From: Escherichia coli
GTDB lineage: Bacteria > Pseudomonadota > Gammaproteobacteria > Enterobacterales > Enterobacteriaceae
Assembly (NCBI RefSeq): GCF_003334765.1
Contig: NZ_QOWT01000008.1
Reading direction: 5' to 3' (one strand)
DNA length: 64,000 bases
The position numbers and the translations under genes were made by a program. Of the stretch, positions 38,111 through 38,317 are shown piece by piece. The number at the start of each line of letters is the position of its first letter. The stretch's first letter is position 1. The notes beneath the pieces were generated by a model that saw only the letters and a list, made by a program, of their open reading frames with translations, did no database searches and was not told the origin of the DNA.

Positions 38111-38140
38111 CAGGGCTGGAATCATCCGGCCCTTTTTTCT
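38111..38140 (+). terminator. Rho-independent terminator after bamC
   Basis: CAGGGCTGGA-atcat-CCGGCCC followed by TTTTTT. Confidence 0.65.
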
Positions 38141-38148
38141 GATATGAT

Positions 38149-38164
38149 ACGCAAACGTGTGCGT
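38149..38164. promoter_or_regulatory. PurR operator upstream of purC
   Basis: ACGCAAACGTGTGCGT, near-perfect pur box directly downstream of a TATGAT -10-like hexamer; about 150 nt upstream of the purC ATG. Confidence 0.6.
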
Positions 38165-38208
38165 CTGCAGGAAAACGCGATTTTAGCGGTAATTCGCACG
38201 AAATTTGT

Positions 38209-38262
38209 TTGTCGGACGTAGTTCGGATAAGGCGTTCACGCCGCATCCGACAAAACATCCGG
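38209..38262. repeat. REP-like palindromic element in the purC leader region
   Basis: GTCGGACGTAGTTCGGATAAGGCGTTCACGCCGCATCCGACA, imperfect REP palindrome. Confidence 0.6.
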
Positions 38263-38317
38263 CACACCAGACAGCAAAAGATTTTAAAACGTTAATTCAC
38301 ACCCAGGAGTGATAAAG

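Follow-up and report, generated by a model that had tools for sequence, protein, structure and literature searches.

A REP element in the PurR-controlled purC leader of Escherichia coli: probably a tolerated passenger in a leader that appears to have grown stepwise

Introduction

Does the stable palindrome that lies in the leader of purC contribute to the control of this gene, or is it simply carried there? The question is raised by positions 38111-38317 of a 64,000-nucleotide stretch of Escherichia coli DNA (contig NZ_QOWT01000008.1; the whole stretch is called the window below), which lie between bamC and purC, the gene for SAICAR synthetase. A sequence-only reading of the window had recognised here a terminator, a -10 hexamer, a PurR box about 150 nt before the purC ATG and, in the intervening leader, a palindrome that looked like a repetitive extragenic palindromic (REP) element. 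It went on to suggest that a structured element inside the 5' untranslated region (UTR) could affect mRNA stability or translation. Each of the listed elements is present in the sequence where that reading put it, and the distance from pur box to ATG measures 153 nt. The locus is a known one, the control region of E. coli purC, and its promoter, PurR operator, transcription start site (TSS) and REP element, catalogued as REP181, are all already in the literature and in databases. The history of the leader, which we suggest to have been stepwise, is a small new detail; the remainder was known.

Our answer to the question, to which we assign a probability of roughly 0.78, is that purC is expressed from an extended -10 promoter under PurR control, that its leader grew stepwise, and that REP181 is a passenger tolerated in it, which affects the mRNA modestly at most. 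The evidence comes from the window itself, from published genome-wide maps and from a comparative set of purC loci from 80 species, to which Salmonella, Klebsiella and Cronobacter were added by exact-protein look-up (L numbers below refer to loci of this set). Window positions (w) were converted to the K-12 MG1655 chromosome as NC_000913.3 position = 2635936 - w, purC lying on the minus strand of MG1655.

Results

The palindrome is a single Y-type REP on the + strand at 38217-38262 (core 38218-38251), identified by its match to the consensus, by its fold and by its entry as REP181 in the Harris 2026 catalogue, where the supplementary record places it at MG1655 2597674-2597719 between the tandem genes bamC and purC. 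It opens with GTAG (38218-38221), the tetranucleotide that a REP is described as requiring at the foot of its palindrome on the 5' side (PMC3333891). The two 13-nt arms (38223-38235 and 38238-38250) are 85% complementary, and the core agrees with the Y-REP consensus at 31 of 34 positions, with no match found in shuffled sequences. The inner stem, in which a 2x2 bubble separates a stretch of 6 bp from one of 4 bp, has a predicted folding energy of -15.4 kcal/mol (z = -4.4), and together with an outer helix the element folds at -26.5 kcal/mol. What had been described as REP-like is a true REP, combining the GTAG, an imperfect palindrome with a mismatch bubble, an extragenic position and occurrence in multiple copies (a 191-nt megablast query hit, at the median, 6 places in an E. 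coli genome). It does not form a bacterial interspersed mosaic element (BIME), as one full REP is present, followed downstream by CATCCGGCA (38256-38264), a REP-like fragment of 9 nt that E. albertii does not keep. A second Y-type REP occurs elsewhere in the window, at 42925-42958 on the + strand in the iREP orientation, matching the consensus at 33 of 34 positions and lying in the ypfN-ypfH intergenic region.

The published start site places REP181 within the purC mRNA. The Kim 2012 supplement gives the TSS of purC (b2476) as NC_000913.2 2595803 on the minus strand, with a 5' UTR of 163 nt and an upstream sequence ending in ...TATGATACGCAAA. This is position 38155 of the window on the + strand, so the 5' UTR, from TSS to ATG, occupies 38155-38317 on that strand. 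The start lies inside the pur box, 7 nt past the -10 hexamer and upstream of the REP, which confirms the earlier proposal that the palindrome is part of the 5' UTR. We rejected a second promoter downstream of the REP: a promoter scan returned no promoter-like site there, and in the rows of the Kim 2012 table adjoining the purC entry the TSSs belong to ypfJ and bamC, with none inside the purC leader. Within those rows the published mapping also speaks against a start downstream of the REP, the case that the sequence-only reading had itself named as decisive against its placement of the element.

Transcription from this start appears to be directed by an extended -10 element, TG-a-TATGAT, at 38140-38148 on the + strand (TG at 38140-38141, TATGAT at 38143-38148). 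The features of a sigma-70 extended -10 promoter, namely TGn followed by a TATAAT-like hexamer and a TSS 6-8 nt downstream, are all found, the role of the TG being predicted. Because the -35 position falls inside the terminator hairpin of bamC and is a poor match, and because a scan for canonical -35/-10 pairs of hexamers found no promoter, we infer that the purC promoter relies on its extended -10. The extended -10 segment is identical in Citrobacter and Pseudocitrobacter. In Salmonella (L089:1060-1085) the -10 hexamer is TAAGAT, not TATGAT, with the TG, the pur box and the terminator retained, and Enterobacter and Klebsiella diverge more than Salmonella in the spacer. Given these differences in hexamer and spacer, the strength of the purC promoter may vary among genera although the operator is invariant.

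The operator is the pur box ACGCAAACGTGTGCGT at 38149-38164 (no strand assigned), which covers -6 to +10 relative to the TSS and is supported by its match to the consensus, by occupancy data and by conservation. It matches the consensus ACGCAAACGTTTGCGT at 15 of 16 positions and is the only match with at most one mismatch in the 64 kb; it abuts the -10 hexamer and overlaps the purC start, and so shows the overlap with the promoter that characterises operators of the pur regulon. That PurR binds this exact site is known from published experiments. Chromatin immunoprecipitation on microarrays (ChIP-chip) lists the purC site as ACGCACACGTTTGCGT, the reverse complement of ACGCAAACGTGTGCGT, among the PurR sites quoted from Cho 2011. 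In the work of Freddolino and co-workers with IPOD-HR, a high-resolution display of protein occupancy in vivo, the purC promoter is a showcase, its occupancy peak lying on the annotated site and being gone both when purR is deleted and when cells grow in minimal medium. These two data sets uphold the earlier assignment of the box to PurR and count against the possibility, raised with it, that the protein does not bind here. The box is unchanged in 19 of 19 aligned Enterobacteriaceae and is recognisable in Erwinia, Serratia, Morganella and Providencia with 2-4 mismatches.

Some further observations concern pur boxes. In two Enterobacter spp. (L021 and L064) the box on the purC strand reads ACGCACACGTTTGCGT, i.e. 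the reverse complement, the asymmetry of the near-palindrome being flipped. Elsewhere in the window, at 14803-14818, stands a second box, AAGCAAACGTTTGCGA, with 2 mismatches, at the expected MG1655 coordinate; read on the other strand it is TCGCAAACGTTTGCTT, the PurR site given for purMN in Cho 2011, and the window therefore holds two pur regulon operators. A 3-mismatch match, ACGCGCGCGTTTGCGT at 17687-17702, is absent from the ChIP-chip sites quoted from Cho 2011 and is probably due to chance, which by itself should produce 0.62 matches with up to 3 mismatches in 64 kb.

Comparison across the Enterobacterales bears on how the leader reached its present length. From pur box to ATG there are 49-52 nt in Citrobacter, Enterobacter, Leclercia, Pseudocitrobacter, Phytobacter, Klebsiella and others, 115 nt in Salmonella, and 153 nt in E. 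coli (the window) and E. albertii, with 152 nt in E. coli SCPM-O-B-8794. The start of the box accordingly lies at -65 to -68 relative to the ATG in Citrobacter, Enterobacter, Leclercia and others, as against -168/-169 in E. coli and E. albertii. The short leaders are nearly structureless (minimum free energy -2 to -7 kcal/mol), and Salmonella, Citrobacter, Klebsiella and Enterobacter, all without the REP, retain an equivalent promoter, operator and Shine-Dalgarno (SD) sequence. When a 38-nt REP block (38215-38252, with bounds that are ambiguous by a few bases), as long as the difference between 153 and 115 nt, is taken out of the E. coli leader, what is left aligns with that of Salmonella without gaps, with identity at 80 of 115 positions. 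The middle segment, which is not part of any duplication, is identical between the two at 27 of 53 positions, compared with 13.6 +/- 3.1 in the null, a value reached by 1 of 5000 shuffles.

Within the 64 extra nucleotides common to Salmonella and Escherichia, the distal leader occurs a second time in imperfect form. In the window, copy 1 (38168-38199, + strand) is the counterpart of the single-copy Citrobacter leader, to which it aligns at 30 of 34 positions, and copy 2 (38272-38302, + strand) is the one proximal to the SD; it is near-invariant within Escherichia and, from CGTTAATTCACAC onward, equals the Citrobacter leader except for one substitution beside the SD. The local alignment of the two copies scores 22, against 11.6 +/- 2.2 for shuffles (3 of 2000 reach it), and a core 13-mer of the repeat recurs at a spacing of 103 nt. 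Taken alone, an internal duplication in Salmonella was not significant and was set aside (670 of 2000 shuffles were as good); what supports the duplication is the pair of copies in E. coli and the positional alignment to Salmonella. The simplest reading of these alignments is that the leader grew stepwise, from about 50 nt, through a gain of 64 nt in the Salmonella/Escherichia lineage, to the addition of the 38-nt REP block in Escherichia.

The two copies flank the REP segment, and Salmonella has the equal arrangement without a REP, which indicates that the duplication was not made by insertion of the REP. The position of the REP corresponds in Salmonella to the loop of a small GCCG/CGGC hairpin, and this explains the outer helix in which the REP is nested in K-12. 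Recombination between the leader copies would recreate a short leader of the Citrobacter type.

Other lineages have leader inserts of their own. In Serratia plymuthica the purC leader, which extends 197 nt after the box, contains at L065:1362-1383 an element of the enterobacterial repetitive intergenic consensus or intergenic repeat unit (ERIC/IRU) kind, with 21 of 22 positions identical to the ERIC2 primer sequence. This parallels REP181 in being an intergenic repeat family that has settled in the purC leader between operator and SD, and it differs in belonging to another element family and another lineage, as an independent event. Further lineage-specific inserts are found in Kluyvera (L018, +63 nt), Providencia (L046/L060, about +180 nt), Erwinia persicina (L047, a G+C hairpin) and Serratia (L036/L049); these expanded leaders run to 100-240 nt after the box, several of them with strong hairpins. 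The 63-nt insert of Kluyvera aligns weakly with that of Salmonella, 77 of 2000 shuffles scoring as well. Judging from these sequences, the interval between operator and SD is one that repeatedly tolerates insertions, and the recurrence of unrelated inserts argues that the content of this interval is not critical.

The predicted folds separate the REP from the signals for translation. The SD, AGGAG at 38305-38309 on the + strand, was identified from sequence and stands 8 nt before the ATG; GGAG-N-ATG is invariant in the aligned Enterobacteriaceae, and the GGAG is constant across genera. The SD/ATG region has no significant structure (-4.7 kcal/mol, z = -0.96). The REP hairpin folds autonomously and does not pair with the SD, leaving the SD/ATG essentially unstructured, and we rejected sequestration of the SD by the REP, since the predicted folds keep this region open. 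The fold of the leader as a whole is unexceptional (z = -1.7). The outer helix (38211-38219 with 38256-38264) that is predicted in K-12 is broken without compensation in both E. albertii and strain SCPM-O-B-8794, so that a conserved RNA structure extending beyond the REP was likewise rejected, on the loss of this helix in two lineages and on the z-score of the leader.

Known classes of leader RNA fared no better. A permissive Rfam search of the leader gave naRNA4, a REP-derived family, as its sole hit (E = 0.0013; 30.9 bits, where the gathering score is 59.5), and a riboswitch or other curated leader RNA was discarded because no covariance model matched at its gathering score. A scan of the leader for open reading frames found no ATG, just frames started by GTG or TTG and lacking an SD; with no U-run after the hairpin either, a leader-peptide attenuator was discarded too. 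Like the purine riboswitches and the leader of the Bacillus pur operon, purC has a long structured 5' leader before a purine biosynthesis gene. Unlike these purine-sensing RNAs, it matches no Rfam family, its structured part is a generic repeat missing in close relatives, and it is controlled by a DNA-binding repressor.

Within E. coli, the purC leader including the REP is present in 5,426 of 5,426 complete genomes at an identity of at least 90%, and it is present also in E. albertii. Among nine diverse Escherichia sequences there is essentially no variation in the terminator, the promoter, the operator or the final 55 nt of the leader, and the substitutions cluster just past the operator and in the REP segment. 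The inner stem of the REP is 97.8% paired, through invariance and G-U changes alone; no pair in the stem has changed on both sides among these nine sequences. At 38223 the K-12 type has T (GTAGTTCGG), whereas G (GTAGGTCGG) stands there in the majority of other E. coli, and through this T the K-12 REP loses the G-C pair that closes the stem.

The surroundings of the leader are those of K-12-like E. coli DNA, with the gene order dapA-bamC-purC-ypfJ-tmcA. The 601 bases around the purC leader are 100% identical to K-12 MG1655 and to many other strains and were found in 5,426 of 5,426 complete E. coli genomes. Upstream, bamC (nlpB) occupies 37071-38105 on the + strand, as judged from its open reading frame and from the bamC annotation in MG1655 and other E. 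coli, its TAA stop codon being 38103-38105. Downstream, the purC coding sequence (38318-39031, + strand; 237 aa) is likewise given by its reading frame and by the annotation of the 714-nt purC of MG1655; its ATG begins at 38318, directly after the last leader base at 38317. The PurC protein is 100% identical between E. coli and E. albertii.

Between bamC and the purC promoter lies the intrinsic terminator of bamC at 38112-38138 on the + strand, a 9-bp G+C-rich hairpin and a run of six T residues, recognised by a terminator scan, by its fold and by Term-seq. The hairpin, AGGGCTGGAATCATCCGGCCCT, spans 38112-38133 with 6 G-C pairs in its stem and is followed by TTTTTT to 38138; its fold (-16.1 kcal/mol, z = -4.6) was equalled by none of 200 shuffles. 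The 'primary' 3' ends of bamC listed in the Adams 2021 supplement, MG1655 2597798/2597799, correspond to 38138/38137 of the window and fall in the T-run. A G+C-rich hairpin, a U-run and 3' ends in that run together identify an intrinsic (Rho-independent) terminator, and the alignment shows hairpin and T-run to be kept across the Enterobacteriaceae. A direct repeat, AATCATCCGGC at 38120 and AAACATCCGGC at 38253, was judged to be a chance REP-like match because it is not present in other Escherichia lineages.

Discussion

Taken together, these data suggest a simple order of events at purC. Transcription of dapA-bamC stops at the intrinsic terminator at 38112-38138, for which 3' ends have been published, and that of purC starts at 38155, RNA polymerase using the extended -10 at 38140-38148 with its poor -35. 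The co-repressor of PurR is hypoxanthine or guanine. Purine-loaded PurR on the operator (-6 to +10) would occupy the start site and block initiation, the bound repressor either excluding RNA polymerase or blocking the formation of an open complex; the occupancy is documented by published in vivo data, and the manner of the block is suggested by the geometry of the site and by established knowledge of PurR. When transcription proceeds, it yields an mRNA with a 163-nt 5' UTR, from which purC is translated at the unstructured AGGAG/ATG. REP181, which is read GTAG-first on the mRNA strand, would stand outside this control logic as a tolerated mobile-element passenger forming an autonomous hairpin. 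The purC promoter resembles the other PurR-repressed pur promoters (purF, purL, purMN, purHD and purEK), which have a 16-bp imperfect palindrome over the promoter and start and a purine-responsive occupancy, and it is itself a member, indeed the reference example, of this group. Its particulars within the regulon are an operator centred just past +1, a weak -35 buried in a terminator and an unusually long 5' UTR.

Whilst REP181 shares with the REP/BIME family of E. coli its GTAG, its palindrome with a bubble, its extragenic position between tandem genes and its multi-copy nature, it differs from the usual members in being single and in lying 3' of both the mapped TSS and the terminator of the upstream gene, which makes it a REP of a 5' UTR. 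The usual setting is the 3' UTR or an intercistronic region (Harris 2026). This placement may not be unique, since the supplement of the same study includes Rho-utilisation (rut) peaks beside other REPs classed as 5'-UTR, at codB, malZ, cysM and ygaY. Our full-text literature search combining purC with REP terms found no paper that discusses REP181 in its main text.

We regard REP181 as a passenger because the hairpin is autonomous, because the SD is free, because Term-seq lists no 3' end inside the purC leader (between MG1655 2597619 and 2597781, in the ends given in the Adams 2021 supplement), because no compensatory pairs were found and because substitutions cluster in the REP; that other lineages carry unrelated inserts at the equivalent place argues in the same direction. 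The sequence-only reading was right about the anatomy, that is the terminator, the -10, the PurR box and the REP in the 5' UTR, and its functional suggestion, of an effect on mRNA stability or translation, found neither support nor refutation in the evidence that we gathered.

Several points weigh against our interpretation. The start site comes from one genome-wide TSS data set, in the purC entry of Kim 2012. The polarity of the last step in the leader's history could be the reverse of what we propose, with loss of the REP in Salmonella instead of gain in Escherichia. The fixation of the REP, which all 5,426 E. coli genomes carry and E. albertii too, together with an inner stem that is 97.8% paired, is compatible with constraint, although REPs are generally conserved at orthologous loci. 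One stem pair differs from the Y consensus on both sides (C-G to T-A) with the hairpin kept, a change that could reflect selection or a subfamily variant. Finally, the passenger status is deduced from sequence, folds and published 3'-end data.

What might REP181 do if it were more than a passenger? It might act as a partial transcription attenuator, with or without Rho, that lowers purC in Escherichia and catches read-through from bamC. A precedent is REP325 of yjdMN, which, like other REP regulators in 3' UTRs, forms a similar hairpin in mRNA between tandem genes, and which is reported to be both a stabiliser and a partial Rho-dependent terminator, the REP protecting the upstream coding RNA and limiting the downstream gene in one operon (Harris 2026). 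That tandem pairs containing a REP show upstream-biased expression genome-wide (Harris 2026) would fit such a role, as would the stability of the hairpin (-15.4 kcal/mol for the inner stem and -26.5 kcal/mol with the outer helix) and the rut-like composition of the 52 nt past the REP, with 29% C and 12% G. However, this C-rich stretch is short and leads directly to a strong SD, the sense strand has no U-run after the hairpin, and the + strand terminator scan finds nothing there. Unlike the upstream gene at REP325, bamC ends at its own terminator (38137/38138), and REP181 lies in the leader of the downstream gene, where the 3' ends listed by Adams 2021 include none. The rut/REP table of Harris 2026, in its entries for this locus, ties REP181 to a weak antisense peak and to none on the sense strand. 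On this balance we consider attenuation unlikely.

Still less probable, in our estimation, is that REP181 stabilises the purC mRNA by hindering the access of RNase E to the 5' end, or its scanning from there, and so raises the output of PurC. Structured obstacles impede RNase E scanning, and a stable autonomous hairpin, fixed in E. coli, does separate the coding region from the 5' end. REPs are, moreover, documented barriers to ribonucleolytic decay (PMC12306157; Harris 2026), but what they are described as shielding from 3'-to-5' exonucleases is the RNA on their upstream side, and here that RNA is a non-coding fragment of the leader. Genome-wide, REP-associated genes show no difference in half-life (Harris 2026), relatives manage without the REP, and compensatory substitutions are absent. 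It remains to consider an action on the DNA or on the opposite strand, with REP181 serving as a protein-bound topological insulator of bamC and purC or as a stop for antisense transcription coming from purC, which we hold to be very improbable and the least credible of these roles. Binding of gyrase and IHF has been described for BIME arrangements, whereas REP181 is single and not a BIME. Reports do describe REPs as topological insulators and as binding sites for gyrase, IHF and Pol I (PMC3333891). For an antisense role there is an in vitro rut peak antisense to purC, which overlaps REP181 by 45 nt and is listed in the Harris 2026 supplement at MG1655 2597592-2597725 on the + strand (38211-38344 of the window, minus strand), both with and without NusG, and the terminator scan finds a terminator-like hairpin with a T-run on the minus strand at 38273-38256. 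The peak is low, though (log10 enrichment 0.46-0.61), no bicyclomycin-sensitive transcript is recorded for it in the Harris 2026 entries, and the sequence of the minus-strand hairpin is not kept in E. albertii or SCPM-O-B-8794. A passenger with at most a modest effect is thus the most likely account of REP181, ranking ahead of attenuation, of stabilisation and of a role on the DNA or antisense strand.

Conclusions

There is a bolder view of the locus, in which REP181 tunes purC post-transcriptionally, and specifically in the Escherichia lineage, through partial Rho-linked attenuation or a block to RNase E, and in which the stretch between operator and SD is a recurrent landing site for repeats. 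We think this improbable. Were it true, Escherichia would set its yield of purC mRNA in a REP-dependent way that Salmonella and Citrobacter lack, and REP, ERIC and other repeat families would be rewiring the purC 5' UTR in different Enterobacterales. The effect of a REP in a 5' UTR has received little attention, because REPs have mostly been studied as elements of 3' UTRs. The purC leaders of this family offer a natural allelic series, from short (Citrobacter, Klebsiella) through +64 nt (Salmonella) to +64 nt and the 38-nt REP block (Escherichia), that could show what such an effect is. On the interpretation that we favour, the locus is also a warning: a strong palindrome within the 5' UTR of a regulated gene resembles a regulatory RNA, and here it would be a mobile repeat of a generic kind that joined the leader late, the leader's control elements being conserved without it.

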